DNA from: Candidatus Woesearchaeota archaeon
GTDB lineage: Archaea > Nanobdellota > Nanobdellia > SCGC-AAA011-G17 > VGLX01
Length of the DNA stretch: 64,000 nucleotides
Direction of reading: 5' to 3'
NCBI GenBank assembly: GCA_964428965.1
Contig: CAYSAF010000001.1
Coordinates: 11,242 to 75,241 of the forward strand
This document shows positions 2,212-52,590 of this stretch, piece by piece. The notes below the pieces were generated by a model. It ran no database searches. It saw only the letters and a program-made list of their open reading frames with translations, and was not told the origin of the DNA. Each line of letters opens with the position of its first letter. Position 1 is the stretch's first letter. Made by a program: the position numbers and the translations under genes.

Positions 2212-2212
2212 A

Positions 2213-3400
2213 ATGATACAAGAATACTTTAAGCTAAGTTTGAGTCACATGAGAACAAGAAGGCTCAGAGCATACCTAACTATGCTCGGAATAGTGATAG
2301 GAATAGCAGCGATAGTAGCGCTAATAACCATATCACAAGGACTGGAAAACGCTGTTTTGCAACAATTCGAAAAAAGGGGAAAAAGCGACATAAGAATATT
2401 ACCAAAAGGACTGACTGGGGCGCCAGCAGCATCAACCATAATAACAACAAAAGACAAAGAAACAGTAGAAAACATAATGGGGGTTGACTACGTTTTTGAG
2501 ATGATAATAACCACAGCAACTGTGGAATACGGCAACGAAAAAAGATTCAGCTCTATAATAAACTACCCTTCTGACCTGCTTGGAAGAGTGTTAGAAGACC
2601 AAGACCTAAAACTGGAAGAGGGAAGAGTATTCAAAAGCGGAGAAAAAGACAGCGTAATAATAGGGAATAAATTAGCCAAGGATTTTTTTGACAAAGAAAT
2701 AAAACTGAGGAACAACATAGTAATAAACGGAAAAAAATTCAGGGTGGTGGGCATACTTGAAAGCCTTGGAGAGTCAACATTCGACAACGCAATAATCATC
2801 CCCCTCGAAACAGGAAGGGAACTATTCAACAAACCAAAAGAACTGAGCGCAATACTAATACACTTCCAAGACGGAGTAGACATAGAAAAAGCAGCAGAAG
2901 ACATAAGAACAAAACTAAAAAGAGCAAGGAACAACGAAAACTTTGACGTATTCACACCGCAAGAACTGCTCAGACAAATAAACACCATACTAGGGGTAAT
3001 ACAGATTGTTCTAGGGGGAATAGCGGGAATAAGCCTAGTTGTCGGCGGCGTTGGAATAATGAATGCGATGTACACAAGCGTAATGGAGAGAACAAGAGAG
3101 ATAGGGGTGATGAAAGCAGTTGGAGCAAAAAACTCTGACATACTAACCATGTTCTTAATAGAATCTGGGCTTATGGGCTTATTCGGAGGACTAATAGGTG
3201 CGATACTGGGAACCGTAGTGGGCTTTGCATTCGGAAAAATAGCGTCACAACTAGGGTTTGGTTTACTGCTGATAAAAATAGAGTGGCAACTGCTAATATT
3301 TGCATTACTATTTGCTTTCTTCGTGGGAGTAATATCTGGGACGCTGCCGGCATTCAGGGCAGCAAGATTGAAACCAGTAGACTCTTTAAGATATGAATAA
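2213..3400 (+). CDS. ABC transporter permease, FtsX/MacB family (tandem paralog)
   Basis: 395 aa, colinear with the previous ORF. Matching segments include RLRAYLTMLGIVIGIAAIVALITIS and MKAVGAKNSDILTMFLIESG. The start is 2 nt after the previous stop. Confidence 0.75.
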   Translation: MIQEYFKLSLSHMRTRRLRAYLTMLGIVIGIAAIVALITISQGLENAVLQQFEKRGKSDIRILPKGLTGAPAASTIITTKDKETVENIMGVDYVFEMIITTATVEYGNEKRFSSIINYPSDLLGRVLEDQDLKLEEGRVFKSGEKDSVIIGNKLAKDFFDKEIKLRNNIVINGKKFRVVGILESLGESTFDNAIIIPLETGRELFNKPKELSAILIHFQDGVDIEKAAEDIRTKLKRARNNENFDVFTPQELLRQINTILGVIQIVLGGIAGISLVVGGVGIMNAMYTSVMERTREIGVMKAVGAKNSDILTMFLIESGLMGLFGGLIGAILGTVVGFAFGKIASQLGFGLLLIKIEWQLLIFALLFAFFVGVISGTLPAFRAARLKPVDSLRYE

Positions 3401-11137: not shown

Positions 11138-11638
11138 ATGTTTCCGGGGAAAAAAACGAGTCTCAAGATATTCTCAAACAGGGTTATACAAGACGGACCC
11201 TTCGACCTGAACATGATATACAAAAACCTAAAAAGCTGGTTCCAAGACCACAACTATGTTTACACAGAAGCAGAGAACACAACAAACTTCAAACCCAAAG
11301 GAGCGGAAATAAAACTAAAAATGAAGGGAGAAAGACTTGTAACAGACTACTACAAATTCACAATAAACATAAACTTCCTAATACTAGAAACAGAAAAAGT
11401 AAAAATAAAAGACAAGGTGCTCGACTACGGAAAGCTGGAAGCGAGAGAAGAGGTCTTTATGGAACTTGATTATAGAAAAAAGTTTGAAAAGAGCAGACTC
11501 GCAAAATTCATAAAGTTCCTGTACAACAACTACATAATAAAAAAAGAGATAGAAACCGAATATGCAGGCAAGGCATACAGTGAAGGAATGAGCGCATTCA
11601 AGACTTTGAAGGAAACGGTAGGACTATACACAGAATAA
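11138..11638 (+). CDS. Uncharacterised ~19 kDa protein, paralog 1 of 3
   Basis: 166 aa. Shares a colinear pattern with the next two ORFs: FDL..IYK.L..WF..H.Y; DYYKF.I; E.DY...EK...KFI...Y. Confidence 0.5.
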   Translation: MFPGKKTSLKIFSNRVIQDGPFDLNMIYKNLKSWFQDHNYVYTEAENTTNFKPKGAEIKLKMKGERLVTDYYKFTININFLILETEKVKIKDKVLDYGKLEAREEVFMELDYRKKFEKSRLAKFIKFLYNNYIIKKEIETEYAGKAYSEGMSAFKTLKETVGLYTE

Positions 11639-11652
11639 AAAAGAGGGGATAA

Positions 11653-12159
11653 ATGGCTGATGTAATAGAAAAGATATGGGTAACACCCCCCATGCCCGGA
11701 GGGATGAAAGTAAGACACGTAGGTTACCTAGACCTGGGAACGTTCTACACTTGGCTGGAGAGATGGTTTGAATTTGAGGAATTTTTTGTACCGGACCTTG
11801 AAAGATTCTACGAAGAAAAAACAGAACCAGCAGGGAAAAAAATGGACATAAGGTGGGTGGGAAAAAAGAAGAAAAACCCCTACTACACCTATGTGATTGA
11901 GATAGTATTCCTACTCATAAACGTGAACAAAGTAGAGGTGCAGATGGGAGAAAAAAAGATAAAAATAGAAAAAGGAGACTTCGAATTCAGGTTGGGAGCT
12001 TATCTGGAAAAGGGAATGAAAGGGGCCGGAGTGCTCAGAAACCTCTACGAAAAAGTGATAGCCAAAAAGAAAGTAGACATATACACAAGGGAATGCTACG
12101 ACAAGGTATACAAGCTCCAAGAGGATATGAAAGCATACTTCAACCAATACGTACAATAA
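11653..12159 (+). CDS. Uncharacterised ~19 kDa protein, paralog 2 of 3
   Basis: 168 aa. Same conserved pattern (LDLGTFYTWLERWFEFEEF...YTYVIEI...). Starts 15 nt after paralog 1. Confidence 0.5.
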   Translation: MADVIEKIWVTPPMPGGMKVRHVGYLDLGTFYTWLERWFEFEEFFVPDLERFYEEKTEPAGKKMDIRWVGKKKKNPYYTYVIEIVFLLINVNKVEVQMGEKKIKIEKGDFEFRLGAYLEKGMKGAGVLRNLYEKVIAKKKVDIYTRECYDKVYKLQEDMKAYFNQYVQ

Positions 12160-12196
12160 AAAGGTTTAAATAAAAACAAAACAAATAAAAAATAAA

Positions 12197-12697
12197 ATGT
12201 CAGAAATAGACTATGTGCATACACCATCAAAGCCGTTAAAGGTTGCGCAAGAAGCAACCTTCGACATGCAGCAACTCTACAAGCTGGGAAGAGCTTGGTT
12301 TGACAAACACGGCTATGACTTCTATGAAAAGGAGTACATATCGTCGCAGAAAGAAGAGGCGAAAAACGCATCCATAAAATGGGAAGCAGACAAAAAAGTG
12401 GACGATTACATAAAATTCCACATAGAAGCAAGGGTCAAATTCAAAAACCTGAGAGAGGTGCAAGGCAAAAAAAGGATGATGAACACAGGAGAGGTGAGCT
12501 TCAGCATAGAGGCATACATAGAAATGGACTACGAAGCGAGGTGGGAAAAGGGATTCATGAGCAAATTCATAAGGGGAGTTTATGACACTTTCGTAATAAG
12601 GGGCAAGATAGAAAAAGACAAACAGAGGCTTGACAGGGAAGCAAAAGAATTCTTCCACGAAATAAGAACGTTCCTCAAATGCAACCCCTGCAAATGA
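12197..12697 (+). CDS. Uncharacterised ~19 kDa protein, paralog 3 of 3
   Basis: 166 aa. FDMQQLYKLGRAWFDKHGYDFYEKE...DYIKFHIEA...EMDYEARWEKGFMSKFIRGVYDTFVI is colinear with paralogs 1 and 2. Confidence 0.5.
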   Translation: MSEIDYVHTPSKPLKVAQEATFDMQQLYKLGRAWFDKHGYDFYEKEYISSQKEEAKNASIKWEADKKVDDYIKFHIEARVKFKNLREVQGKKRMMNTGEVSFSIEAYIEMDYEARWEKGFMSKFIRGVYDTFVIRGKIEKDKQRLDREAKEFFHEIRTFLKCNPCK

Positions 12698-12756
12698 TTA
12701 TTCTCGAGTAGTGGCAAAACGAAAGGTATTTAAAACTGAATTTCTAAAAAAAAGGC

Positions 12757-14127
12757 ATGAATTACAGGGGTATACTAACATATGGGATAGCGGGGCTGAT
12801 ATTCTTAGGAAGCTATACAATGCCTATTATAGCGAGAGCTCAAACAGCCACCAGCTCCGTAAAACAAGAATTCTTTGACACGATAGTTGATTATGCAAGA
12901 AAGCAGGGACTAAATCTTAATAAAATAGAAGAAAAAAACATAGAAATAAAAAGCGAAGTCAAGAGAAAAGATAAAGAAGGAAACTATGAAAAAGTGATGG
13001 GGCTTTTTGACAGACAAACAAGAAAGATACAGATAGAAAGATCAAGCCTCGAAAACATAGCAACGATAGGCATACACGAGATTACACACGATAAACTGTA
13101 TGATGTTGAAGAATCTGAATTGTGGTTTAAAAAAATACACTACAAAGTACAAAAACAAGACGACATATACATAGCGACAGTGAAAGAAGAGCAAGCGAGT
13201 TGGACAATCCCAAAAGAACTACAAAAACTAACTATAAAAGATGAAGGAATGAATAATGAAACCGTAATATACGACGCCAAAGGAAACATGCTAGTAAAAC
13301 TTCAGATGAATAGAATAGAAAGTAAAGATGACTTGACAGTGAGGGAGAAAGGAGCAAACTACGAAATAAACGGCTTACAAGGGGAATGGCACTACGAAAA
13401 ATATGACAATAAGGAATATGAGAATATAAGACTTAGTTACAAACCTTCTGAGGAGATAATGGAATTCAACAATGAAGTAATAGCTAGGATATACGAGCAA
13501 GTATTCGGTGGTTACTACCATGGAAAAAACGTATACAAAATAACTACAGAAAAAGACAAAAGTATACTAGGAAAATCCCTTGCTTACCTAACCTCAACTT
13601 ACAGCCTAACACCTGAACAACAAAAAATATCAGAAAATTCCGAGGGGGCATACATCAGGCTAAACGAACACGGACTATTGAACCTCTTAGAAAAAATACT
13701 CCCAATAGGAGGAAAAACATTCAAAGAGGCTATGGAAGACGTCCAAGATGAACGATTCTCAAAGAGTTTGGCACTTGCATCTGTAATACTAACAGAACAG
13801 GACTTTATAACATTGCTCGATATGTACAACACAAAAGGCAAAGAAGGTGTAATACAACTGCTAAGCGAACAAATCCGAGAGCTTAAAAAAACAAAAAAGG
13901 TAGGAGCTCTTAATGAATATGAAATAATAAAAGAATACCTAAAAAGATTCAACTTGAACGATGAAGAAGCAGAATACGTCATGAGATACACAAAACATGC
14001 AAACTTTACAGACATGATAAAAAGTAAAGAAAAAATAAAGCACATAGAAAGGATAAAACAACAAAACCTAGAAAAATTGATGGAACCATTCAGACCACAA
14101 GAAAAAGAAATAACAAAAGGTTTATAA
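12757..14127 (+). CDS. Secreted protein with an HExxH motif (putative zinc metallopeptidase-like)
   Basis: 456 aa. N-terminal signal/TM segment (GILTYGIAGLIFLGSYTMPIIARAQTA). Contains IGIHEITHDKL (HExxH). Confidence 0.45.
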   Translation: MNYRGILTYGIAGLIFLGSYTMPIIARAQTATSSVKQEFFDTIVDYARKQGLNLNKIEEKNIEIKSEVKRKDKEGNYEKVMGLFDRQTRKIQIERSSLENIATIGIHEITHDKLYDVEESELWFKKIHYKVQKQDDIYIATVKEEQASWTIPKELQKLTIKDEGMNNETVIYDAKGNMLVKLQMNRIESKDDLTVREKGANYEINGLQGEWHYEKYDNKEYENIRLSYKPSEEIMEFNNEVIARIYEQVFGGYYHGKNVYKITTEKDKSILGKSLAYLTSTYSLTPEQQKISENSEGAYIRLNEHGLLNLLEKILPIGGKTFKEAMEDVQDERFSKSLALASVILTEQDFITLLDMYNTKGKEGVIQLLSEQIRELKKTKKVGALNEYEIIKEYLKRFNLNDEEAEYVMRYTKHANFTDMIKSKEKIKHIERIKQQNLEKLMEPFRPQEKEITKGL

Positions 14128-14150: not shown

Positions 14151-14573
14151 ATGAGACAAAAAAAATTGATTGCAGCTGCAGCGATAACAATAATCATGGA
14201 CCAAATAACAAAGATAGTTCTAACAAACAAAAAATACCCAGTACTTGGGTTTGATATAATAAGCTACACAGAAAACACAGGGGCAGCTTTCAGCATACTA
14301 CCCGGGCAGAGGTTGCTGTTAATAGCAGTAGCCTCAGCAGCACTGATAGTACTCCTCTATTATGCAACTAAGATAAGAGAAAAAGAGAAAAAACTACAAA
14401 TCCCAACAGGGATGCTAATAGGGGGCATAGCAGGAAACCTAATCGATAGGATACTACTAGGCTATGTTAGGGACTTCATAAACCTAGAGATATGGCCTAC
14501 GTTCAACATAGCAGACACAGCCATGTTCATAGCAATAATACTCCTGATAATACATCTCTTTAAGAAAAAATAA
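14151..14573 (+). CDS. lspA: Lipoprotein signal peptidase (signal peptidase II)
   Basis: 140 aa with 4 TM helices. Carries the SPase II boxes: YTENTGAAFSILPG (NxGAAF), IGGIAGNLIDRILLGYVRDFI (GNLxDR...VxDF), WPTFNIADTAMFIAII (FNxAD). Confidence 0.8.
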   Translation: MRQKKLIAAAAITIIMDQITKIVLTNKKYPVLGFDIISYTENTGAAFSILPGQRLLLIAVASAALIVLLYYATKIREKEKKLQIPTGMLIGGIAGNLIDRILLGYVRDFINLEIWPTFNIADTAMFIAIILLIIHLFKKK

Positions 14574-14574
14574 G

Positions 14575-14727
14575 ATGGACAAAAAAATACTAAAAATTTA
14601 TAAAAGGCTGTTGAAAAAGTTCGGCAAGCAGGGATGGTGGCCGGTAACAGACGAGAAAAACGCTCAATTCGAAATAGAGATAGGAGCGATACTGACACAA
14701 TATATTAGTTTTACTTATTATTTTTAG
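14575..14727 (+). pseudogene. N-terminal fragment (first ~42 aa) of an endonuclease-III-related HhH-GPD gene (COG2231-like), interrupted by the integrated element
   Basis: MDKKILKIYKRLLKKFGKQGWWPVTDEKNAQFEIEIGAILTQ matches the N-terminus of the family. Compare the intact copy at 14724..15476 (LFEMYGSQGWWP...IGAVLAQN). The frame then runs into unrelated YISFTYYF* and stops. The missing NTSWKN...C-terminus lies at 28076..28618. Confidence 0.7.
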
Positions 14728-15476
14728 GATTCTAATATTTTGGCTTTCCTAATGTCAACCCTTCCTTTCTTACCTCCTGCTTTCACATATTTTTTATATA
14801 AAGGACAATTATGATATTCCCCTTTCTTTGCATAATACCTCTTGGCATGCTCTACTATAAGGGCATGATATTCCTGATAGGTTGTAAGGTCAGACTTTAA
14901 GTTGCCCTCAAACAAGGCTTTTATCTCATCATACTTTGCATCTTCCTTAATAAAGCCCAGATTTGCAAATATCCTCTTTGTGTAGGCATCCACAACAAAA
15001 GTAGGGGTCTTAAAGGCATATAACAGCATAGAATCCGCAGTTTCGGGTCCAATACCCCATATATTCAATAATTCTTCCCTTTTGGGTATATAGGTAAGGG
15101 TTAGGAAAAACCTTGTAAACTCCTTTAATTTCCTTGCCTTCTGGTTGAAGTATCCAGCTGGCTTTATGGCTTCTTTAAGCTTATTGTTGTCTAATCCCAT
15201 GAGGGCTTCTGGGTTGAGGGCTTTTAATCCCTTAAGGTTGTTTAATGCCTTTTCTGCGTTCACCCATCCTACGTTTTGAGCGAGCACAGCACCAATGCAG
15301 ACCTCATAGATTTGGTTTGTTGTCTTAGGAAATTCATAATTTCCAGGATGATAACCACCATAATTCTTACTACCTTTCCTATAAGTCACTTCCCCCAAGT
15401 CCAGCAGAGGCCACCAACCCTGTGAACCATACATTTCAAATAAATCATCGTATACATCTTTAATGGTTTTAATCAT
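14724..15476 (-). CDS. Endonuclease-III-related HhH-GPD protein (COG2231-like), intact element-borne copy
   Basis: 250 aa. GSQGWWP, IGAVLAQNVGWVNAEKALNNLK, AGYFNQKARKLKEF, LLNIWGIGPETADSMLLYAF, VVDAYTKRIF and EYHALIVEHAK are colinear with the split host gene, with roughly 50% identity. Confidence 0.7.
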   Translation of the reverse strand: MIKTIKDVYDDLFEMYGSQGWWPLLDLGEVTYRKGSKNYGGYHPGNYEFPKTTNQIYEVCIGAVLAQNVGWVNAEKALNNLKGLKALNPEALMGLDNNKLKEAIKPAGYFNQKARKLKEFTRFFLTLTYIPKREELLNIWGIGPETADSMLLYAFKTPTFVVDAYTKRIFANLGFIKEDAKYDEIKALFEGNLKSDLTTYQEYHALIVEHAKRYYAKKGEYHNCPLYKKYVKAGGKKGRVDIRKAKILES

Positions 15477-16402
15477 ATTATTACCCCTCTAAATTTATTG
15501 AATCGTTTATAGCATTTAAAAATGTTAAATAAGTTTGGAAGACTTTCTTTTGATATTTCTTGATAAGTCCTTCCGGTAATTCCTTGAATAAACTTATCAC
15601 TTACATCAAAACCTATGTCCCATAATTCACCATTTTTTACCTCTTCAATAAACTCTTTGATGATGGTATTTAATGTAAAGGATTTGTCATTTGACATAAC
15701 TCTCCAGAAAAAATAAGTGTTTAAAATTCTTTTAATATCCCTTACTTCGTCCTCTGAAAATAGCCATCTTCCTTTCAATAAGGCATCATTCTCTTTTTTG
15801 AAAGAATTTAACTTTGAACTTAACTCTTTATATTTTTGTATAGATAAGTGCATCCCTTTAATTTTCTCTTCTATGTCTTTTATCTCTGCTAAATTATGTG
15901 GTTTATCAATAAAATCTTCTTTTAACATATCATATGTTTTCTTTGGCTTACTCTGTTCTTTAGCTTTTTCTAGTATTAACTTATAGGCTTTGATTCTTTT
16001 TTCAATAAGCTTAATTCTTTGACTAAAAAAAGAACACATTAAATCTATTTTTTGGTTGATTTCCTTTACTTGTTCCTTAAAGATTAATTCAATCCTTTCA
16101 TATAGTTTATCATAATTAAGGTCAAATTTATATCCTTCACCAGACCTCCTATTAATTTTGTCCTTGTTGCTTACCAGGACTATTCTCTCCTTTTCTAAGA
16201 GATTCCTATATTTATTGTATGTTCCTTGTGAGATAAACCCTTGTTGTTCATCTTTAAGTTCTATTAAGGATGGTTTTTTATTACTATTCTTAACAATTAA
16301 TTCAGTAGTATCACATCCTACCCCAATTGTGGCAACAATCATTGCTACACTTGGAAGTTCCCAAAGGGATTTATTTTTAATTATACTATTTTTGCTATTC
16401 AT
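15473..16402 (-). CDS. Hypothetical protein (element). Coiled-coil rich.
   Basis: 309 aa. 4-nt overlap with the downstream endoIII-like gene suggests an operon. K/E-rich helical middle region. Confidence 0.45.
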   Translation of the reverse strand: MNSKNSIIKNKSLWELPSVAMIVATIGVGCDTTELIVKNSNKKPSLIELKDEQQGFISQGTYNKYRNLLEKERIVLVSNKDKINRRSGEGYKFDLNYDKLYERIELIFKEQVKEINQKIDLMCSFFSQRIKLIEKRIKAYKLILEKAKEQSKPKKTYDMLKEDFIDKPHNLAEIKDIEEKIKGMHLSIQKYKELSSKLNSFKKENDALLKGRWLFSEDEVRDIKRILNTYFFWRVMSNDKSFTLNTIIKEFIEEVKNGELWDIGFDVSDKFIQGITGRTYQEISKESLPNLFNIFKCYKRFNKFRGVII

Positions 16403-16472
16403 ATAATTAAATAATTATATATCCTATATATACTTTTTGGTTTTATGTCTCATTAACCGATTTCTAAGATAG

Positions 16473-16497
16473 TTTAGTTATATGTTTTTTAACTAAA
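16473..16497. promoter_or_regulatory. Inverted repeat (TTTAGTTA-n9-TAACTAAA) in the divergent promoter region, candidate RHH operator
   Basis: Perfect 8-bp arms. Lies about 35 nt upstream of the RHH ORF, between divergent gene sets. Confidence 0.3.
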
Positions 16498-16528
16498 ATA
16501 TTATTAATACCCTAATAATTATATTATT

Positions 16529-16681
16529 ATGGAAAAATTATTCACAATGAAGATGGACGATGAGCTTTACACTAAGCTTCGGAAGATTGCCTTTAAAAGA
16601 AATGTTTCAATGGGGTTATTCATAAGGAACGCCCTAAACCAAGAAATTAGGAGATTAAATCAAAATGAGCAAAATGTTTGA
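16529..16681 (+). CDS. Ribbon-helix-helix (CopG/Arc/MetJ-like) DNA-binding protein
   Basis: 50 aa (below the ORF-track cutoff). MEKLFTMKMDDELYTKLRKIAFKRNVSMGLFIRNALNQEIRRL is a classic beta-strand + two-helix RHH pattern. Confidence 0.5.
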   Translation: MEKLFTMKMDDELYTKLRKIAFKRNVSMGLFIRNALNQEIRRLNQNEQNV

Positions 16682-16875
16682 TTTGTTAAATCCATTGACA
16701 AAATATCTTGTCAATCGAGCAATGCAGGATAACCTAATTGCAAATGCAGAAGAATTATCAAAAGTGTCAAAAATGTTTAAGGATAATAAAAGGGAGGATG
16801 GTTTAGCTGTTACAAGCTCTCAGAGTTAAGCTGTTAGGAAGTTTCTAAAATTATAGGCCGTTAGGAGGTAGGCAG

Positions 16876-17067
16876 ATGGAGGATTGCTTTAAATTTGAGG
16901 ATTTTATTTGTTACCTGAATGATGATAATTCTAAGGTAACCGCATATGTAGATATTATTTACACGAATTCTTCGGTAATTAAATTTGTCACTAAAGAAGG
17001 CAATTTGATTACATTACCTTGGCATAGAGTTCTTAAAGTAAAGCAGAGGGGTGGTAATGATGAGTGA
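16876..17067 (+). CDS. Small hypothetical protein (element)
   Basis: 63 aa. Overlaps the primase-helicase start by 17 nt. Confidence 0.3.
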   Translation: MEDCFKFEDFICYLNDDNSKVTAYVDIIYTNSSVIKFVTKEGNLITLPWHRVLKVKQRGGNDE

Positions 17068-18313
17068 GTTGACACCCTTTGATGTAGCAAAACAAATAAT
17101 GGAAGAGAATATTTTTCTAACATTAGAAAAAACTGAAGAGATTTACATTTATAAAAATGGGGTTTATTGCAAACAAGGTGATACTTCGATTAAAAAAAGA
17201 GTGCAGGAAATATGGGGGGATAAAGCAACTACACATAAAGTAAATGAGGTAATTAATCATATCAAAAGAATGACCCTAAGAGATGTTGAGGATGACGCTG
17301 TACCCATTAGTTTGATTTGTGTGGAGAATGGTATCTTGAATATATATACGCGTGAATTAAAACCACATAGCCCAGATGTTATATTTTTCAATAAACTGCC
17401 TATAAAGTATAATCCTGATGCTAAATATACAAAGTTCAAATGTTTTATAGAAGACTTGGTATCAAAAAATGATGCTGAAACATTACAGGAGTTTATAGGA
17501 TATTGTTTACGAAGAGACACAGCTTACCAGAAAGCGTTAATGTTGTATGGTAAGGGGAACAATGGTAAATCCACACTCACTAAGATTTTGGAAGGGTTTT
17601 TGGGAAAACACAATTATACATCAATACCCCTTCAGCAATTAGAAGAAGATAAATTTATAGTAGCAAATCTACATGAAAAAATGGTTAATATATCCGCAGA
17701 TTTGCCAAATAGGATATTATATGAGACTTCAATAACAAAGGCACTAATTACAGGTGATAGTATTACTGCCCAACGTAAATTTGGTCATCCATTTAGTTTC
17801 GTCCCATATACCAAACTTATTTTTAGTTGTAATAGACTTCCAGAGACTAAAGATTTGAGTAGCGGTTGGTTTAGAAGATGGATTATTATAAGTTTTCATA
17901 ATACTTTCAGAGAAAATGCTCAATCAAATAAAGAATTAGAATTTATGAATGAGGAAGATATGTCAAGCGTATTGAATTGGGCATTAGATGGCTTAGACCG
18001 TTTAAGACAAACTGATGGTTTTCTAATAAGTGAGCGTGAAACAAGAGAAATATGGATGAAACATAGTGATAATGTGTCTGCGTTTATTCAGGATAATATA
18101 GTGAAGGATGTAAATTCACACCTAATAAAAGAGGAACTTTATGATAAGTATACCTCTTTTTGTGAAAAACAAGGAAGTGTTCCTTTAGAGAGTAATGCCT
18201 TCCATAGGAAATTGAAAGAGAAGATGGATGTTATTGATTATCAACCATCTGTAGATGGTAAGCAAGTACATGCATGGAAAGGTATTAATTTTAAAGATAC
18301 TCCACCATGGTAG
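17051..18313 (+). CDS. D5/P4-type primase C-terminal SF3 helicase-domain replication protein
   Basis: 420 aa. Walker A LMLYGKGNNGKST. Walker B/motif C region KMVNISADLP...LITGDSITAQRKFGHPFSFVPYTKLIFSCNRLP, and WFRRWIIISF. This is typical of phage/plasmid primase P4-family (COG3378-like) proteins. Confidence 0.7.
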   Translation: MVMMSELTPFDVAKQIMEENIFLTLEKTEEIYIYKNGVYCKQGDTSIKKRVQEIWGDKATTHKVNEVINHIKRMTLRDVEDDAVPISLICVENGILNIYTRELKPHSPDVIFFNKLPIKYNPDAKYTKFKCFIEDLVSKNDAETLQEFIGYCLRRDTAYQKALMLYGKGNNGKSTLTKILEGFLGKHNYTSIPLQQLEEDKFIVANLHEKMVNISADLPNRILYETSITKALITGDSITAQRKFGHPFSFVPYTKLIFSCNRLPETKDLSSGWFRRWIIISFHNTFRENAQSNKELEFMNEEDMSSVLNWALDGLDRLRQTDGFLISERETREIWMKHSDNVSAFIQDNIVKDVNSHLIKEELYDKYTSFCEKQGSVPLESNAFHRKLKEKMDVIDYQPSVDGKQVHAWKGINFKDTPPW

Positions 18314-18319
18314 CTCAAA

Positions 18320-18346
18320 TAATTAGGAATTAGGATAATTAGGATT
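18320..18346. repeat. Three tandem copies of (A)ATTAGGA immediately downstream of the replication gene, candidate iterons
   Basis: aattaggaattaggataattagga within an AT-rich intergenic spacer. Confidence 0.3.
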
Positions 18347-18388
18347 TTATTATATTTAAGTTAAATAAAATATATTATAAATTAAATT

Positions 18389-18988
18389 ATGGAAAAACCC
18401 AATTATCCTCATTGTAGAATGAAAATGGAAACAAACCATGACGCAAACCAAGAAAAAACATGCAAGAAATCTCTTGAATATAAAAAAAATGTAGGGAGGT
18501 TCTCAAGGTTGACCCAGGAAGAGTTAAGCCGAATAGCAAGAAAAGGTGGTCAAGCAAGGTCAGAACGAAAGAGGCTGTCATCTCAATTAAATCCCATAAA
18601 ATCGGGCAACGCAACATCGGTATTCAATATTGCAAAGTGTGATGACTGCTTAATTAAGGTTGATTGTGATTTCTATAGGCAAGGCTCAGCCTGCCAAGTT
18701 GAGATTAATATCAGAAGGAACATAATCAGGCAATTCAAGGCATTCCAGGGCGATAATCCAAAAGACATGCTTATAGAGATTATGAGGGTTTATAAAAAGC
18801 TTGAGCAGATGGTAGAAGAAGACAAATCTTTCTATAAATATACACAATTATTCCATATGCTTCTGCATCTTTATAGGATGAAGTTTTGTGAGGGGCATTT
18901 TGATAAAAAGATTCTGGAAGATGGGCTTAATATTTCTTTAGAGGTCAAGCGGATTATGAAAGAGCTACGGGGGAGTGCCAAAAAATAA
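18389..18988 (+). CDS. Hypothetical protein (element)
   Basis: 199 aa. Basic N-terminal region (ARKGGQARSERKR). No clear domain. Confidence 0.4.
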   Translation: MEKPNYPHCRMKMETNHDANQEKTCKKSLEYKKNVGRFSRLTQEELSRIARKGGQARSERKRLSSQLNPIKSGNATSVFNIAKCDDCLIKVDCDFYRQGSACQVEINIRRNIIRQFKAFQGDNPKDMLIEIMRVYKKLEQMVEEDKSFYKYTQLFHMLLHLYRMKFCEGHFDKKILEDGLNISLEVKRIMKELRGSAKK

Positions 18989-19050
18989 TGAACCGTAGGT
19001 AAATAATCCTGCTATATGGGTGCTTCAAAAAAAATGTAATTTAAGACACC

Positions 19051-19332
19051 TTAATCCTTTTTAATTTCTGACAATATTTTGTTTGCCTGCTGTAAGACTT
19101 TCTTGCCTTCTGAAGTTAATTTATAAAACTTATAGTTCCTGTCGTCTGGATTGACACATTTGATTAACTTTTTTCTCAGCAACTCATTCAAAACCCTGCT
19201 TACATGGGACCTGTACATTCCAGTTTGCTTTTCAATCTGGGCAGAGATTTTCTGACCTTCCTGTAAAACCCGAAGTATACCTAAACGATTTTTTGCTCTT
19301 AATACATAGGAGACTACATTCTGTTTACCCAT
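19051..19332 (-). CDS. Winged-helix transcriptional regulator (ArsR/MarR-like)
   Basis: 93 aa. RLGILRVLQEGQKISAQIEKQTGMYRSHVSRVLNELLRKKLI matches a recognition-helix + wing pattern. Confidence 0.6.
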   Translation of the reverse strand: MGKQNVVSYVLRAKNRLGILRVLQEGQKISAQIEKQTGMYRSHVSRVLNELLRKKLIKCVNPDDRNYKFYKLTSEGKKVLQQANKILSEIKKD

Positions 19333-19422
19333 GAGTTACCATACACATACCATAATTAAAACAAAGTATTACCAAATGAGTTACCAAAAATATTAAATAC
19401 GACAACATATTATATAGATATA

Positions 19423-19833
19423 ATGGAGAAGAAAAAGGCGGTTTGGATAGGAGTATTAGGATTCTTAACCTTTGTATTCCTTCTGATAGTTATATTTGGA
19501 GATAGTCCGGAAGAAGCGGCAGAAAAACAAAGACTTCTCACAGAGCAAGCACAAAGAGAAGATGCTATAAGAGCTGAACAAAAAGCCAACCAATGCCCAA
19601 AGCAAGGCATATTACAATCTGATTGGGATTATTGTGTTGAGTTGTGTGTGTTAGGAAAGAGTGATGCTTTGATTAACGAAGAACAATGTGAAAAAATCTG
19701 TGATACAACTGAGTATTACCAAGGTAGTGAGGGTTTGCAGAAAAGAATTATGAATTATAAATGTAAAAAGTGTGGAGAATGCACAGAGGAACAATTAAAA
19801 GAAATGAATGTAAGTAATGAGGTAGAAGAATGA
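19423..19833 (+). CDS. Cys-rich membrane-anchored or secreted protein (element)
   Basis: 136 aa. N-terminal TM (VWIGVLGFLTFVFLLIVIF). 10 Cys in the C-terminal half. Confidence 0.4.
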   Translation: MEKKKAVWIGVLGFLTFVFLLIVIFGDSPEEAAEKQRLLTEQAQREDAIRAEQKANQCPKQGILQSDWDYCVELCVLGKSDALINEEQCEKICDTTEYYQGSEGLQKRIMNYKCKKCGECTEEQLKEMNVSNEVEE

Positions 19834-20432
19834 ATATACGATTTATCATAGGGATAATTATAATTCTAATCCTAATTGACATAGTAACCGCTATGGTTTG
19901 TAAAACTGATTATGAAGATAAAGATTATCTCAAATGTCTTGAATGGAGAAAAGAAAGGATTAAAGAATGTGAAGATGACCCAGACTGTGCAGGTATTTGT
20001 GACGAGTTAGAAGATGGAAATTATAGTTCATGCCTAGTAATATCTGAATGTAATCCGCCCCAAAAATGTCAAAGTGAGTTTGGAGAAGGAGAGCCTCCGG
20101 TTGAACAACAACCTATATGTAGTACATGCCCTCCGGCTTGTAAGCTAAAAGACCCAAATGATACCTGTGGCGAATGCATATGTCCAGAAAATCATGGTTT
20201 TTGCACCCATGAAGTAGGAGTGAGGAAAATTATCAATAACACATCTATCTATTGCATTGATGGATTATGGCTACAACAAAAAGAAGATAACCAAACCTGC
20301 CAGAATAGCTTTGAATGTATTAGCAATTTTTGCAGTAAAGACTTTTGCTATGATATTTCTAAACAAGTTGAAGAAAATAAATCTCTATTGAACAGCATTC
20401 TTGATTGGATAAAAAAATTCTTTAGGATATGA
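19830..20432 (+). CDS. Cys-rich secreted protein (element)
   Basis: 200 aa. N-terminal hydrophobic segment, about 30 Cys. 4-nt overlap with the previous ORF. Confidence 0.45.
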   Translation: MNIRFIIGIIIILILIDIVTAMVCKTDYEDKDYLKCLEWRKERIKECEDDPDCAGICDELEDGNYSSCLVISECNPPQKCQSEFGEGEPPVEQQPICSTCPPACKLKDPNDTCGECICPENHGFCTHEVGVRKIINNTSIYCIDGLWLQQKEDNQTCQNSFECISNFCSKDFCYDISKQVEENKSLLNSILDWIKKFFRI

Positions 20433-20567
20433 TATCTAAATACCAAATTAAATCATCCCGATTTTTCGGAATCATTTCCCATTTAAAACCGGTAATTCTT
20501 ATTAAAAGGGTAATATAATTTCATTGAATTACTATAACATTTATACCCAGAGGGGAGCCAATCAGGG

Positions 20568-21161
20568 GTGGACATGAAAAAGTTTAAATATCTCTATAAC
20601 TACTTAAAAATGATGAAATACACGCTAATTATGGGATTGGTTTTGACTGTTGTTTTAGTTAGTGGATGTGGTAATACCACAGGCGAGACAACAAAAGAGA
20701 TAACTAAATACGTATGCCCTGATGGCAGGACAGTTCTTGACAGTTCGTCATGCTTAAAATTAGACTGTTCAACCTGCCCTGTGAAGATGGAAACAAAAAC
20801 AGTTAAAGAACCTATTTATGTCTGCCCTGATTTGACCGAAGTTAAAGATAAGAAAGACTGTATTAATGCTGATTCAGAAGGATGGTATGATGTGATTACT
20901 TTGCATGGAAGTGGACAAACTACCACACAAAAATTCCATATAACAGGTAATGAATGGAGATATTCAGTTAAATGTGACCTTTCAACTGCAGGTTACAATA
21001 TTGTTATTTACGATAAAAACTCAAAGCATATAACAATGAACTTGATGGTCCCTTGCAACGACCAATTTGAGGAATATTCTTATGTTTATCAAGGTGATAA
21101 TGATTTTTATTTTGACATTTATGCAACAAATTGGGAAGTAAAAGTAAAGGCTAAAAAATAG
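20568..21161 (+). CDS. Putative lipoprotein (lipobox LVSGC), Cys-rich
   Basis: 197 aa. MMKYTLIMGLVLTVVLVSGCGNTT is a signal peptide with an L-V-S-G-C lipobox. The mature part has repeated CPDG/CPDL motifs. Confidence 0.45.
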   Translation: MDMKKFKYLYNYLKMMKYTLIMGLVLTVVLVSGCGNTTGETTKEITKYVCPDGRTVLDSSSCLKLDCSTCPVKMETKTVKEPIYVCPDLTEVKDKKDCINADSEGWYDVITLHGSGQTTTQKFHITGNEWRYSVKCDLSTAGYNIVIYDKNSKHITMNLMVPCNDQFEEYSYVYQGDNDFYFDIYATNWEVKVKAKK

Positions 21162-21355
21162 AAAGCTAAGGATTTCTCCTTAGCATCATGTTCTATCAGA
21201 GCGTCAGCTCCTTAAATTTAAAAAGAGTGATAAAGAAATAGACTTTTTTAACAAACACTACTTATTTAACAAAGCTGTTTTAAAAACGACAAGTTAAAAA
21301 ACATAAAGTAACCTCTTTTTATGGAAGATGGGGGAAGTAGGTTATAGGAGGGTAT

Positions 21356-21988
21356 ATGGTCTATGCAATTAGAATTCATATTATGAATTATACATATAGT
21401 TATTATGGTGGTTTTGTGGCAGGAATATTAATAGCCTTTGCTCTTGGACAGAATCCTATCAAACATAATTTAGTTAACTTATTATTCTTTATGATTTTTA
21501 CATATCTTTTTGGTTTGGTTTGTGTATCGTTTATTTATTGGTGTTTAAAGCCTTATGAACACAATGAAACTGTACCTTTGAGTAAAAAAAGGAAGACTTA
21601 TAAGTTAAGAGGGATTATGGTATACATAAAGGGGTTGTATCTTATGAACGAATTTGATAAAAGATTATTCACTGCTTTGAAGTTTTTTGCAGATAATACT
21701 AACGTTACGATACTAAATATAAGACAAGAAAATATGGACTGGTATAGAAGACAAGTTCCAACAGATATGGAAGAATATCTCAGTAGAATGGATTATATTT
21801 CACTAAACAGAATGAGGTATATCCCTCCAGCGGGAACTGGTCAAGGTCAACGTATAATAACTTATGCAGGGCTTACTGAGTTAAGAAAGTTGGAAGAAAT
21901 AAGATATAGAGACAGAGTGGTTATTATAGCTTTAATAGCATTATTACTGTCTCTGTATACTTTTGCAAAAACACAGGGGTGGATTTAA
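21356..21988 (+). CDS. Membrane protein (element), 3-4 TM
   Basis: 210 aa with hydrophobic helices at the N- and C-termini. Confidence 0.4.
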   Translation: MVYAIRIHIMNYTYSYYGGFVAGILIAFALGQNPIKHNLVNLLFFMIFTYLFGLVCVSFIYWCLKPYEHNETVPLSKKRKTYKLRGIMVYIKGLYLMNEFDKRLFTALKFFADNTNVTILNIRQENMDWYRRQVPTDMEEYLSRMDYISLNRMRYIPPAGTGQGQRIITYAGLTELRKLEEIRYRDRVVIIALIALLLSLYTFAKTQGWI

Positions 21989-22282
21989 ATGGGTATAAGA
22001 GAAGATGCTGGAAAGATATTATTGTTTGTATATAAAAAGTATATAAATGAAGAATATTATTTAAATACTGAAAGTATAATAAAAGGGACTAAATTACCAG
22101 CTAAAAGAATAAATAGTGCTATCACCTATCTAAAAGATATTGGTGCTATCCAAATTACATTATTCTTTGGGAAGACAGATGGTGTTTATAATTTCGAGAT
22201 TGATGGTTTAACGCCTAGAGGGATTGATATTGTAGAGAACAAAAAGAAGTTTAAGAGTATTTTTGGAATACGAGAAGGGTAA
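21989..22282 (+). CDS. Hypothetical protein (element)
   Basis: 97 aa. Its start abuts the previous stop. Confidence 0.35.
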   Translation: MGIREDAGKILLFVYKKYINEEYYLNTESIIKGTKLPAKRINSAITYLKDIGAIQITLFFGKTDGVYNFEIDGLTPRGIDIVENKKKFKSIFGIREG

Positions 22283-22428
22283 GGGGGTTTAAAAATACAA
22301 AAACCATGTCTATTGTATACTGTTTGTATTTGGTAATTCATACATCTAATCAAAACTCACTAAGCTTCCCCTGTCCTTTAGCCTTCTTATGATTCCGCCA
22401 AGTCATCTAAGACTTACGGAGAGATAAA

Positions 22429-22923
22429 ATGCCGCCAAGATGGATACATGATGCTATGGATATAATTTGGTGTGCTAGAAGTTATTGGGAAATACACAAA
22501 GAAAAAGATGCACCCTCACAGATTTTGGGTTATAAACATAGGAAGGTAAAACATGAATATTACCAAAAGTTTAAGGATGTTGAAGAATTTATTGAAAATT
22601 TATCAAATCTAGATATAAAGACTGAAGAAGAAGGGGTAAAAGTTACACATGATTTATTAGATAAAATGTGGGACAGCTCATCTAAAGAGGAAAGAGAGTG
22701 GCTTGCTGGCTTTTTCCTTTTTATTATTTTAAATCCAGATGTTCTTTGGGAATGGGCAGGAGTTAATCCAAAAAAAGGCATATCTAAATTTTATGACCCA
22801 AAAGAAAAGAAGATAAAAATTGAACATAATACTCAGCTTAAAAAAGATTATCTGCAATTAAGGGCTTATGTAGAAAATAAAACAGTTGAAGAGTTATTAT
22901 ATATGCCCCCTAAAAACTTATAA
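22429..22923 (+). CDS. Hypothetical protein (element)
   Basis: 164 aa. No motif recognised. Confidence 0.4.
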   Translation: MPPRWIHDAMDIIWCARSYWEIHKEKDAPSQILGYKHRKVKHEYYQKFKDVEEFIENLSNLDIKTEEEGVKVTHDLLDKMWDSSSKEEREWLAGFFLFIILNPDVLWEWAGVNPKKGISKFYDPKEKKIKIEHNTQLKKDYLQLRAYVENKTVEELLYMPPKNL

Positions 22924-22950
22924 ATTTATTTGCATTCTAATGCTATCCTT

Positions 22951-24333
22951 TTAACTGTAACTACCTTGCAAAACTAGATTATTATTAGCATCTCTTAAAT
23001 AAAATGTATCGCCATCATTATTCCAGACAGCCGAAGTGCTTCCCCAATATAATTTTTCTGCTGTATTAGTGCCAGAACCAGTATAAAGGGTTACACTAGT
23101 TTGTGGATAAAGGTTAAATGTTGGGAATGTATAAACATGATTTGCTAAGTCACTTATAGTCCAAGAAATCATATCTACAGGAAAACTACATGTGTTCTTT
23201 AAAGTAACATACTCGTCGTTTAAGTTATAATTATCGTTTCCATAAGCATCATAATGAAAATTTGAGATAACAAAACAATCAGAATAATCTTCTTTAGCTC
23301 TTTTCCATAAACAACCAGTAGCATCTTGTTTTGCTTCTGCCTCTGCTTGCTTCATTTGAGTTTCATATTTCACATTTGGACTAATAATCCAAACAGTGGC
23401 TAAACCCTCCCTAACTAATGCTAGATTAACAAATGTATCACCAACATAAATATACCTTAACAATCTATCATATCTATCTTTATCCTCAACATCTTTTTCA
23501 AGAGTTACCTCTTTATTTAACACCAACTGCCCTAAACTATCTTTTGCTTCTTGATAACATGGTTGTCCACTTTCAGCTGAGTTTATTTCAAGTAATCTAA
23601 CTTTTTCTCCCGTGTTCAATTCAATTGTATCACCATCTATAACTCTTGTAACAATATAACCTGAACAATCTGGGCAATCTTTACACTCATTTGTTGCACA
23701 AATATTGTCATCTTTACAGCCACATCCAACCCCTGCACTCCCACCACTATTAGATGCATTTTCTGGTTCTGGATTGCATTTTCCTTCTGAACAGCCATAT
23801 GGACACTTGTAGTATTCTGAATCCAATTTAGAATTTTTACAGTAATACTCAATTAGATAATTTTCATATCCTACATTAGTATCGCACTCATCATATACTT
23901 TGCCTTTAACACTATAATATATGTATCCTTTAGTATGATAATCCTTTCCGTTATCTGTATCTTCACAAGGTTTACATTTTGCGTTTTCACATCCATAAGA
24001 ACATAACTCATTAAAAACCCAGCTAAAGCTACAATTTGAATGTTGATATTTCCTTTGAATATTATTTCCATCACATCTATACTCATCTAAGTATCCTACT
24101 TCACAAGTTTTCTTTTCTTCTTGTCCTATTTGTATTTGTTCCTTTTGTCTTTGAATTTCTGCTTGTTTAGATTTATCTTGATTAGCAATAGTATCGTTAT
24201 CAACTAAACTTCTAGAAGCAAGAGAGTTATTATTCTGCTTTACTACATGACCAGTTGGTCTTAAGCTAATACTGATAAATAAAATAGTTAAGATTACTAG
24301 ACAAGTAATCAAATATTTTATATTCCTTTTCAT
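22951..24333 (-). CDS. Secreted nuclease: Cys-rich N-terminal region + staphylococcal-nuclease-like (SNase) domain + C-terminal lamin-tail domain
   Basis: 460 aa. Signal/TM LITCLVILTILFISISL. SNase-like core GYIVTRVIDGDTIELNTGEKVRLLEINSAE...DRYDRLLRYIYV. The C-terminus NDEYVTLKNTCSFPVDMISWTISDLANHVYTFPTFNLYPQTSVTLYTGSGTNT...VWNNDGDTFYLRDANNNLV matches the LTD pattern. Confidence 0.6.
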   Translation of the reverse strand: MKRNIKYLITCLVILTILFISISLRPTGHVVKQNNNSLASRSLVDNDTIANQDKSKQAEIQRQKEQIQIGQEEKKTCEVGYLDEYRCDGNNIQRKYQHSNCSFSWVFNELCSYGCENAKCKPCEDTDNGKDYHTKGYIYYSVKGKVYDECDTNVGYENYLIEYYCKNSKLDSEYYKCPYGCSEGKCNPEPENASNSGGSAGVGCGCKDDNICATNECKDCPDCSGYIVTRVIDGDTIELNTGEKVRLLEINSAESGQPCYQEAKDSLGQLVLNKEVTLEKDVEDKDRYDRLLRYIYVGDTFVNLALVREGLATVWIISPNVKYETQMKQAEAEAKQDATGCLWKRAKEDYSDCFVISNFHYDAYGNDNYNLNDEYVTLKNTCSFPVDMISWTISDLANHVYTFPTFNLYPQTSVTLYTGSGTNTAEKLYWGSTSAVWNNDGDTFYLRDANNNLVLQGSYS

Positions 24334-24422
24334 CTTTCCTTTAGTTAATTATGTTACAATATAACACAGCCCCTGCTTTTTAAAGATTATGGCTTAAATA
24401 AGCAAAATTAATTAATACTTCT

Positions 24423-25211
24423 TTATTCTAATTTAATTGGACTACTCTGAATTAGTTTTATATCAACTGTTGGTTCACCAAAGCCACTAAGAATAAAGTT
24501 TGTAGCCTCTGTATCTGATGGGATTTCAAAGGCTAATTCTCCTGTTATATGTTCTCTTGGTAGAATTGATGAGTAAAAGCTAATTCTATCAAATTCGTAT
24601 TTATTTTTCTCACCTTCACTAACTTCTTTATAACCACAACCATATAAATCAGCTTCTTCATAAATATACCCTTTATCAACTTTCAACTCTTCTTTGTAGT
24701 AATCTAAATTGTCTTGTTTTATTCCATTATTTGTGATTGTTAAGGTTAAGATAACAAATTTATAATTTGATTTTGGTTGACATATATAACAGTTAGTAAT
24801 TTCTGTATATTCACTATAATAACAATCTCTTATAATCTTACTATCATCTTTAACAGAAGTAACTACCAAAGAGAAATTTCCAATATTTACGGCTTGATTT
24901 ATTGTGCCGTTGATAATTTCTGGATTTTCTATCTCCTGTGTGATTTTCTCTAAGCTTTTAGTTGTAGTAATAAACACAAATAAAACAGATAAAATAATTA
25001 CTGCAATAACAATTAATATAATTCCGAGTATTTTTGGTGTTGTTCCTTTCTGGCAGATTAGAAAAATTGCAATAGCAAGACCTAAAATTTCTACTAATAA
25101 AGTAGCTACTGAAATTCCCAGCAGAGTTAAAAATAGCCCAACTACAAATAAGACTACAACAATCCAAGTCTTCAGTCCTTTTCTTTCTCCTTTGATTTTG
25201 TTCCTACTCAT
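24423..25211 (-). CDS. Membrane protein with 3 N-terminal TM helices and an extracellular beta-rich domain
   Basis: 262 aa. KTWIVVVLFVVGLFLTLLGISVATLLVEILGLAIAIFLI...ILGIILIVIAVIILSVLFVFI. Confidence 0.45.
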   Translation of the reverse strand: MSRNKIKGERKGLKTWIVVVLFVVGLFLTLLGISVATLLVEILGLAIAIFLICQKGTTPKILGIILIVIAVIILSVLFVFITTTKSLEKITQEIENPEIINGTINQAVNIGNFSLVVTSVKDDSKIIRDCYYSEYTEITNCYICQPKSNYKFVILTLTITNNGIKQDNLDYYKEELKVDKGYIYEEADLYGCGYKEVSEGEKNKYEFDRISFYSSILPREHITGELAFEIPSDTEATNFILSGFGEPTVDIKLIQSSPIKLE

Positions 25212-25421
25212 GATTAATTAGTGAGGGGGTGTTCCTTTATAAATGTCTTGTGCCATGTTGTTTCTTTAACCCTATTGCTTATAATTAGATTTGTTAGCAA
25301 AAGTCAAAATACTTATACGTACCCTCTTGGGATAAGCCCACCCCGTGCCTTAAAATATGTGAACAGACGTTTAAAATAGGGTTATGGTACTGTCTCAAAA
25401 AAAGGGTTGCTTTTTTGCCTA

Positions 25422-25895
25422 TCACTCCTTACTTTTATCGTTTGTTTCCTCCTCATAGGTGTCCTCCCTATCATCCACTTCCGAATTATCATCCAAACCG
25501 ACTTCTTTGTTAAACTGTTTTCTCAAATTATCGACTTTTCTGAGATTAAGTTCCTCAATAGCCTTGAATTTGTCAGGATGATAATGTCGCCTGTTATTAT
25601 CTGATTCTATTCCTTCTTCAAAGTGTGATACTTCATGAACTATTGTGTACCATGCATGACCCGTAAGTTCATCTTTGGAATATAATTTTTCATCAAATGT
25701 TATGGATGATTTAGGATTTTTTTTCCATCTTGCGTAATCTTTCATACTGAATGGTGCCAGTCCTTCATCCCTGAATATTCCTCTACGAGTATGATGTGTG
25801 TCTCTGAAGAAAACATACACATCTACATCATACAATCTTCGCATTACTTTCTTGGTATACTTAACCATTATCTTTTGTTTATCCATATTCTTCAC
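25422..25895 (-). CDS. Putative HExxH metallopeptidase-like protein
   Basis: 157 aa. GHAWYTIVHEVSHFEEG contains HEVSH. Confidence 0.35.
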   Translation of the reverse strand: MKNMDKQKIMVKYTKKVMRRLYDVDVYVFFRDTHHTRRGIFRDEGLAPFSMKDYARWKKNPKSSITFDEKLYSKDELTGHAWYTIVHEVSHFEEGIESDNNRRHYHPDKFKAIEELNLRKVDNLRKQFNKEVGLDDNSEVDDREDTYEEETNDKSKE

Positions 25896-26216
25896 CTATT
25901 GGGGGATGGGGGCCCTAAATGGCACACACCCGTTTTCAATGTTCGAGCTATTGTACTGTTTCAAAAAAAAAGGAAAAAAGTAACTGGTTTATTGAAATCA
26001 ATCAATTAATGCAGTTACTTAGTTAGTGGATATTTTTTCCTCCAGGGAGGGCGGAAATCCACTTCTACCTTTCCATACTTTTTTTCATATTCCTCACATT
26101 CTTTAACAAATTCGTCCCACTTACTCCAATCTTCTATTGTGGGGTATGGTGGTTTTTTCTCATTATTTGTTCTATCCATTTTATTACCTCCTGTTTTTAT
26201 TTTACAAAATGTATAA

Positions 26217-28013: not shown

Positions 28014-28075
28014 TTTCCTCCTTTTAGGAAGGGATTGGCATTATTTTAAGCCTGACTGCCTAACCATATAAGTAA

Positions 28076-28618
28076 TATATTGGAATCTTAAAAATAATAA
28101 TAAAAACTCAAATATTAACACAAAACACCTCATGGAAGAACGTGGAAAAAGCAATAAAAAACCTGAGAGAAAAAAACATTCTAACAAAACAAGCAATACT
28201 AACTACAGATACAAAAAAAATAGCACAACTCATAAGAAGTTCAGGATACCACAACCAAAAAGCGAGAAAGCTGAAAGAATTGGCCAAGTTCGATGGAGAA
28301 ATAAACAGGGAGAACCTACTAAGCATCTGGGGGATTGGAAAAGAAACAGCAGACTCCATACTCCTATACGCTTATGACAAACCACACTTCGTAATAGACA
28401 ACTACACCAAAAGAATATTTAACAGGATAGGTTATAAGGAAAAATCATACAAAGACCTGCAAAACCTTTTTGTGAGCAATTTGCCAAAAGACATAGGGGT
28501 ATACAAGGAGTATCACGCATTAATCGTGGAATTGGCTAAGAACAACTGTAAGAAGAAGCCAGAATGTGAAGGATGCGCCTTGAAAAGCATGTGCAGATTC
28601 AGAGACGATGTATCATAA
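28076..28618 (+). pseudogene. C-terminal fragment (~180 aa) of the endonuclease-III-related HhH-GPD gene split by the element
   Basis: The in-frame translation upstream of the annotated GTG reads ...ILTQNTSWKNVEKAIKNL, continuing exactly where the N-fragment stops. It contains GYHNQKARKLKEL, LSIWGIGKETADSILLYAY, VIDNYTKRIF and EYHALIVELAK, colinear with the intact family member. No proper start codon or RBS. Confidence 0.7.
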
Positions 28619-31587: not shown

Positions 31588-31589
31588 AG

Positions 31590-43085: not shown

Positions 43086-43171
43086 TGGGCCTGCCCGGAT
43101 TCGAACCGGGGACCTCCACCGTGTGAGGGTGGCGTTTGCTAGTTTCCTCATAGCCACTAGACTACAAGCCC
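43086..43171 (-). tRNA. tRNA-Val (anticodon CAC) with an atypically long D-arm region, possibly a non-canonical intron
   Basis: Reverse complement: GGGCTTG-TA-[30 nt D region]-CCACC-CTCACAC-GGTGG-AGGTC-CCCGG-TTCGAAT-CCGGG-CAGGCCC-A. The acceptor stem (one G-U pair), anticodon and T arms are canonical. The D region is about 13 nt longer than standard. Confidence 0.6.
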
Positions 43172-52564: not shown

Positions 52565-52590
52565 CTTTTCACCCCCTCATTTTTAGAAGT

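Follow-up and report, generated by a model that had tools for sequence, protein, structure and literature searches.

The window analysed here, a 64,000-nucleotide stretch of a Candidatus Woesearchaeota contig, carries at 14151-14573 (+) a gene for a 140-aa lipoprotein signal peptidase (LspA; Peptidase A8) with four predicted transmembrane helices and a short three-strand β-cradle. This raises the question of whether a bacterial-type signal peptidase II (SPase II) belongs to an archaeal chromosome and, if it does, what work it might perform there. According to reviews and primary papers from 2018 to August 2026, no archaeon is known to have a homologue of Lgt, Lsp or Lnt (PMC6098224, PMC7613921, PMC12462473, PMC13631571). 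The archaeal signal peptidase II was described in 2022 as an enzyme that 'has yet to be identified' (PMC7613921), the authors of the AliA/AliB work also regard the archaeal lipoprotein signal peptidase as still to be identified (PMC12462473), and a paper of August 2026 states that 'no homologs ... have been reported in archaea' (PMC13631571). Our own literature search with LspA or Lgt and DPANN names returned only papers stating archaeal absence.

Starting with ATG, the ORF matched the Pfam profile Peptidase_A8 (PF01252) with 112.3 bits (E = 2.8e-32; cutoff 25), the match spanning residues 10-137 of the protein and positions 2-141 of the 142 in the profile. The NCBIfam lspA model TIGR00077 gave 84.9 bits, above its curated cutoff of 73.95. 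Sequence relatives in the PDB were LspA chains only (5e-16 to 7e-14), the best being the Staphylococcus aureus enzyme (6ryo/6ryp; 5e-16) and the others that of Pseudomonas aeruginosa (5dir, 9emz). All three SPase II boxes named in the original prediction were found as stated: NxGAAF as N42-T-G-A-A-F47 (14274-14291, +), GNLxDR as G95-N96-L-I-D99-R100 (14433-14450, +) and FNxAD as F118-N-I-A-D122 (14502-14516, +). An alignment of 40 archaeal homologues, 38-70% identical to the window protein, had 17 invariant columns. These are N42, G44, A45 and F47 of the first box, N96, D99 and R100 of the second, F118, N119, A121 and D122 around the third, and D17, K21, G92, V106, D108 and F109.

The catalytic dyad of the solved LspA structures (5DIR/6RYO), which we take to be D124/D143 in P. 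aeruginosa and D118/D136 in S. aureus, has its counterpart in two aspartates encoded by GAC codons, so the check on the catalytic residues came out positive. Asp108, in a V-R-D-F motif (14472-14474, +), aligns with P. aeruginosa D124 and S. aureus D118, and Asp122, in FNIAD (14514-14516, +), aligns with D143 and D136. The aspartate of the GNLxDR box (D99) is conserved, yet it is D108 that aligns with the first catalytic Asp. Both catalytic aspartates were invariant in all 125 archaeal and bacterial LspA sequences compared, and 14 of the 17 columns varied in no more than one sequence of the same set. Beyond the dyad, the residues that are invariant in the family (D17, K21, N42, G44, G92, N96, D99, R100, V106, F118, N119 and A121) are all present; from LspA structures, these presumably have further catalytic or substrate-binding roles. 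Where the P. aeruginosa enzyme has A109, the window protein has an aligned Ile. The retention of 17 invariant columns at 38-70% identity argues for purifying selection of the kind that acts on an active enzyme. There is very little doubt that the gene genuinely belongs to the LspA family and to an archaeal chromosome.

By homology, the most likely function of the protein is the cleavage of lipobox signal peptides; its cleavage activity and the identity of its substrates are what we infer from the sequence. The host is a member of the Woesearchaeota (GTDB class Nanoarchaeia, DPANN) and the product a putative minimal four-helix membrane aspartyl protease. A lipobox-bearing precursor would be exported by Sec, components of which (SecF and SecD; 33065-35744, +) are encoded in the window and are mentioned for context only. 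The +1 Cys of the precursor would then gain a thioether-linked lipid, after which LspA would cut immediately N-terminal to the lipidated Cys, leaving a surface protein held by a lipid anchor. The lipidating enzyme and its lipid, which would have to act first, may be of the archaeal AliA type or belong to an Lgt. We consider it likely that this explanation holds as a whole, that is, that the gene is a chromosomal lspA of a Woesearchaeota archaeon, of ancestral bacterial origin, whose product cleaves lipobox signal peptides. The strongest alternative is that the protein is a true member of the LspA family with another job, either as a general intramembrane protease acting on non-lipidated signal or anchor peptides or in processing proteins whose lipids were scavenged from a bacterial host; it would then not be a classical SPase II dependent on Lgt. 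Its shape, its partners and its candidate substrates all bear on this choice.

The shape was modelled with AF2 on a 40-sequence alignment (pLDDT 91.4, pTM 0.85), giving helices at residues 4-24, 54-72, 77-103 and 120-138 and strands at 28-31, 34-42 and 106-110. In a Foldseek search of the PDB with this model, only LspA structures were significant (6ryp, 5dir and 6ryo; TM 0.78-0.81, rmsd 2.5-3.3 Å) and the next match had an E-value above 1. The window protein thus has in common with bacterial LspA (MEROPS A8; PF01252; 5DIR, 6RYO/6RYP) the family, the Asp pair and the other invariant residues, together with, in the AF2 model, the four-helix fold with a β-cradle (TM 0.8). It differs in its archaeal host and in its length, 140 aa against about 155-170 aa in bacteria. 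It also differs in the β-cradle: the segment from the conserved Lys to the Asn has 15-20 residues in archaeal LspA and 25-26 in the sampled bacteria, and the window protein lacks 5-11 residues there relative to the bacterial enzymes sampled. Another difference lies between the two catalytic aspartates. Archaeal LspA has a fixed 9-residue loop from the first catalytic Asp to the FN motif and no periplasmic helix. Such a helix is present in 5DIR and 6RYO, whereas the inter-Asp loop of the window protein has no room for one and none is formed in the AF2 model. Given the short β-cradle and the missing helix, both of which favour a different job, archaeal LspA could differ in how it handles substrates.

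The short loop is not peculiar to archaea, however. LspA proteins from Chloroflexota, Bacillota, Actinomycetota and Margulisiibacteriota (loci L015, L016, L023, L041, L047, L067 and others) have the same 9-residue loop from D to F and the same W-P motif, and some also have V-R-D-F. They are the nearest bacterial sequences to the window protein, at no more than 41% identity, but they retain a longer Lys-to-Asn segment (21-30 residues) and several adjoin lgt or ileS. That ordinary LspA of Chloroflexota and Bacillota (and Actinomycetota) has the short loop speaks against reading it as the mark of another job, as does the retention in the window protein of every residue that is invariant in the sampled bacterial LspA. 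One of these loci, L015, is labelled 'MAG: bacterium' and has lspA beside lgt; it was considered as a mislabelled archaeon and rejected, since its gene order, ileS-lspA-lgt, is that of an ordinary bacterium.

In bacteria, Lgt must first place a diacylglyceryl group on the Cys before LspA can act. Since the bacterial enzyme needs a lipid-modified Cys, the pathway would be incomplete without a lipidating partner. Unlike several of the bacterial loci, the window lspA has neither ileS nor lgt next to it. We searched all ORFs of 166 loci and of the window with phmmer, using Escherichia coli Lgt, and then with a profile made from 16 Lgt hits. No Lgt turned up in the 64-kb window, nor in the 10 kb on either side of lspA at about 20 archaeal loci, whereas at 13 bacterial loci this search placed Lgt beside lspA; its matches were only bacterial. 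This contrast speaks for the LspA-family protein having some other job, and it agrees with a survey of RefSeq genomes in which Lgt was absent from archaea (PMC13251419). The alternative partner is of archaeal type. AliA and AliB (arCOG02177/02178, Haloferax volcanii) belong to the same pathway, the maturation of archaeal lipobox proteins; they carry out lipidation whereas LspA carries out cleavage, and they are unrelated to LspA in sequence. AliA has been reported in DPANN 'with some gaps' (PMC12462473). Woesearchaeota, which may live on bacteria, are also reported to have murein-degrading enzymes as well as isoprenoid and fatty-acid genes of bacterial type (PMC8204110). These bacterial-type lipid genes keep a bacterial-type lipid substrate possible, and they also lend something to the suggestion that LspA is connected with scavenged bacterial-host lipids.

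At the start of the window (2-3400, +), a CARDB/DUF11-domain surface protein gene is followed by two tandem genes for MacB-type permeases (MacB_PCD and FtsX; 395 aa each). These have the transporter architecture of the bacterial lipoprotein extractors LolC/LolE; such permeases are common.

Two proteins encoded in the window have clear lipoboxes, and both motifs that had been called (LVSGC in the ORF from 20568 and LFGC at 54335) are present. The first candidate substrate lies on an integrated element at 20613-21161 (+), within a longest ORF that begins at GTG 20568; it reads MKYTLIMGLVLTVVLVSG/CGNTTG, the slash marking the predicted cleavage site, and has a textbook lipobox (...VVLVSG/CGNTTG). 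The second, of the TraT family of surface-exclusion and complement-resistance lipoproteins (54335-55114, −), has the signal peptide MKRLIKYLLIVPVVILFG/C and the lipobox ILFG/C (...VVILFG/CAAAIR). The TraT-like protein is full-length (PF05818, 2.2e-43; residues 31-259, profile positions 2-214 of 214), and a lipobox-like Cys is present in 69 of 81 TraT-like homologues, the archaeal copy included. It is 68-84% identical to bacterial and phage copies (loci L166, L167 and L168). Homologues at 68-78% identity come from bacterial contigs, of which one encodes DnaA, DnaN and a PBP and another NusG, L11 and DnaE; a further homologue comes from a phage-like contig that encodes a family-A polymerase. This level of identity to bacterial and phage copies points to a recent cross-domain import of the TraT-like gene. 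Both clear lipobox proteins of the window are therefore encoded on recently acquired DNA, which makes them weak evidence for a native substrate set.

Genes near that for the TraT-like protein encode secreted DUF3108-like paralogues (51980-53550) and a HerA/DUF87-type ATPase (57649-59733), and may have been acquired with it as one block. One of the paralogues (52918-53550, −) has the sequence LLSAC and was considered as a lipoprotein. It was rejected: the hydrophobic stretch runs past the Cys, and the paralogue at 51980-52564 has a site of the signal-peptidase-I type.

A tally of 368 genes from the archaeal loci gave four lipobox ORFs (with the Cys), too few for enrichment, or five when the TraT-like gene, which the tally filter excluded, is added; among these loci, one or two further lipobox ORFs occur outside the window (L005, L017). 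About four to five lipobox ORFs per 368 genes is within the usual bacterial range. In a SignalP 6 survey, predicted lipoproteins were prevalent in DPANN (PMC12462473). That native lipobox proteins are scarce in the archaeal DNA sampled would suit a different job for LspA, but the genome does encode lipobox proteins, and in the imported TraT the lipobox Cys has been retained. Weighing these points with those from the shape and from the Lgt search, we regard another job for this LspA-family member as unlikely, and the cleavage of lipobox signal peptides as the preferred reading.

How such cleavage would be joined to lipidation can be put more specifically. Lipoprotein maturation in Woesearchaeota/Nanoarchaeia may use bacterial-type LspA cleavage either after an AliA-type transferase, in a hybrid pathway with an ether-lipid-modified Cys, or on bacterial-type lipids, a proposal to which we give an even chance. 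If it is true, LspA would be the first archaeal lipoprotein signal peptidase to be identified, and bacterial-type lipids in such cells would be either scavenged or self-made. These archaea could then take up bacterial lipoprotein genes and use them directly, the TraT-like gene being an example. With this protein and its relatives there is a specific candidate for the lipoprotein signal peptidase that archaea have seemed to lack, at least in DPANN; the question is not solved for haloarchaea. It also provides a test case for whether LspA can act on archaeal ether-lipid anchors, and it bears on how DPANN cells, thought to be attached to other microbes, build their surfaces and on how easily they adopt bacterial surface proteins.

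The gene is not an isolated occurrence. A protein search with the window LspA gave 1,426 matches; among the best 120, all those with an organism name were labelled 'archaeon', 'Nanoarchaeota', 'Nanoarchaeia' or 'Woesearchaeota', apart from one 'marine sediment metagenome'. Homologues already have the GenBank name 'signal peptidase II' (e.g. MFH1332578.1, MBS3149810.1, MBT7238299.1, MDP6642152.1 and HLC73792.1). Among GTDB species representatives, 16 Woesearchaeota/Nanoarchaeota genomes were found in the best 80 loci, the others being from Bacillota, Chloroflexota and other bacteria. A metagenome scan with an archaeal LspA profile returned mostly bacterial loci and at least three of archaeal type (L086, L098 and L130). 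SPase II had been called rare in archaea, and the literature calls it absent from them; neither holds for Woesearchaeota/Nanoarchaeia, where the enzyme is common and labelled as such in GenBank. The clade therefore contradicts the standing statement in the literature, although the family itself is known and only the host domain is unusual. It appears to have been recorded in databases and to have gone unrecognised in the literature that we searched; the names assigned by the GenBank pipeline limit the novelty accordingly.

We built a neighbour-joining tree from 125 LspA sequences, 56 of them archaeal. A single, purely archaeal clade holds 48 of the 56, and most of the archaeal proteins outside it have archaeal nearest neighbours. 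The clade has a transfer-bootstrap support of 0.86 and an exact-clade bootstrap of 9/100, the low latter value being due to the shortness of a 140-residue protein and to rogue short sequences. A perfect split between archaea and bacteria requires 11.5 taxa to be moved on average, compared with 51 when labels are random. The median identity of the window protein to archaeal homologues is 46%, and its identity to any sampled bacterial one is at most 41%. Of the two outcomes originally set against each other, a bacterial donor or an archaeal clade, the tree favours the clade and singles out no one bacterial group as donor. The clade was seen only in records of the Woesearchaeota/Nanoarchaeia type. 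Gene order is also partly retained: between 7 and 9 of 17 Woesearchaeota loci, in which LspA is about 40-46% identical, keep neighbouring housekeeping genes (PPDK, an AP_endonuc_2 protein, a 480-516-aa protein, GluRS and a PUA protein). Judged from these sequence relationships, there was probably a single early acquisition from bacteria in this archaeal lineage, with vertical descent since.

The position of lspA invites a different history, in which it is a recent bacterial import or the cargo of a neighbouring element. An integrated element with a low GC content (0.31-0.34, compared with about 0.40 elsewhere) occupies 14700-28140. Its genes include a tyrosine integrase (26217-28013, −), a D5-type primase-helicase (17051-18313), a secreted SNase+LTD nuclease (22951-24333, −) and a DUF4352 protein (24423-25211, −). 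A host HhH-GPD glycosylase gene is interrupted by the element: its N-fragment of 50 codons (14575-14727, +) marks the left junction, and its C-fragment lies at 28142-28618. That lspA abuts the insertion site and that the N-fragment follows 1 nt past its stop were both described correctly beforehand; the fragment merely adjoins lspA and has no part in its function. At its left end, the element also brings a complete HhH-GPD gene (14724-15476, −), which shares 54% identity with the intact host-type copy of a related locus (L003) and may replace the host gene that the element disrupts. A search for flanking direct repeats (att sites) of the element found nothing convincing.

The gene lies about 125-150 nt from the left junction, on the host side and outside the element. 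Its GC, GC3 and codon usage are like those of host genes and unlike those of element genes. In two relatives without the element, GCA_043810595.1 and GCA_043808805.1, whose LspA proteins are 70% and 64% identical to that of the window, the order is PPDK ... three 166-aa genes, a 456-aa gene and lspA, as in the window. Downstream of lspA, GCA_043808805.1 has an intact HhH-GPD gene followed by GluRS, L7Ae, L24e, NDK, SecF and SecD. The host side of the split gene, the element-free relatives and the host-like composition together indicate that lspA is neither element cargo nor a recent import. The distance of only about 130 nt to the junction would favour import or carriage by the element, as would the recent arrival of further bacterial genes in the window, the TraT-like gene among them. 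Against these stand not only the position of lspA in element-free relatives and its composition and codon usage, but also its closer relationship to archaeal homologues than to the best bacterial match. Recent import or element cargo is thus largely refuted and can be considered highly improbable: lspA is an old, vertically inherited resident that is not linked to the element.

Two further features of the surrounding gene order were noted. Three tandem genes for proteins of 166-168 aa (11138-12697, +), without a Pfam match, lie just upstream of the genes for the 456-aa secreted protein and LspA, and their order is kept in relatives L002 and L003. L003 also has a bacterial-type lytic transglycosylase gene (PF01464 SLT; 12395-13369, −) between the HhH-GPD and PUA genes, and the window has none at the corresponding place.

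The contig itself is archaeal, as seen from a class-1c GluRS (29229-30863), an L7Ae-S28e-L24e operon (30939-31769), Spt5 (NGN+KOW; 36586-37056), an eEF1A-type elongation factor (aEF-1α; 60597-61898), a GCD14/Trm61 methyltransferase, FKBP26 and its tRNA genes. Two tRNA genes, at 43086-43171 (−; 86 nt, Rfam 54.9 bits) and 62492-62598 (+; 107 nt, Rfam 39.5 bits), were missed by ARAGORN, which together with their lengths suggests archaeal introns. The idea that lspA comes from a bacterium, through the bacterial contamination raised beforehand or through a chimeric assembly, gains something from the frequent contamination of DPANN MAG bins and from mislabelled public records, but with archaeal markers on both sides of lspA in the same 64-kb window, the lspA neighbourhood reproduced in an independent ENA assembly and two NCBI MAGs, and homologues in those 16 GTDB genomes, it has already been refuted by the linkage evidence and keeps scarcely any credibility.

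The mislabelling in question concerns an archaeal-type EF-1α (P0295), 76% identical to that of the window, whose GenBank label reads 'MAG: ... [bacterium]'; errors of this kind at the level of the domain complicate taxon counts taken from record names. The best named relatives of the window aEF-1α are from Candidatus Nanoarchaeia, Woesearchaeota, Nanoarchaeota and archaeon GW2011_AR17, at 76-91% identity. Matching sizes suggest that relatives of EF-1α and LspA are physically linked in independent assemblies, on three Logan contigs of 37,691, 60,864 and 130,763 nt.
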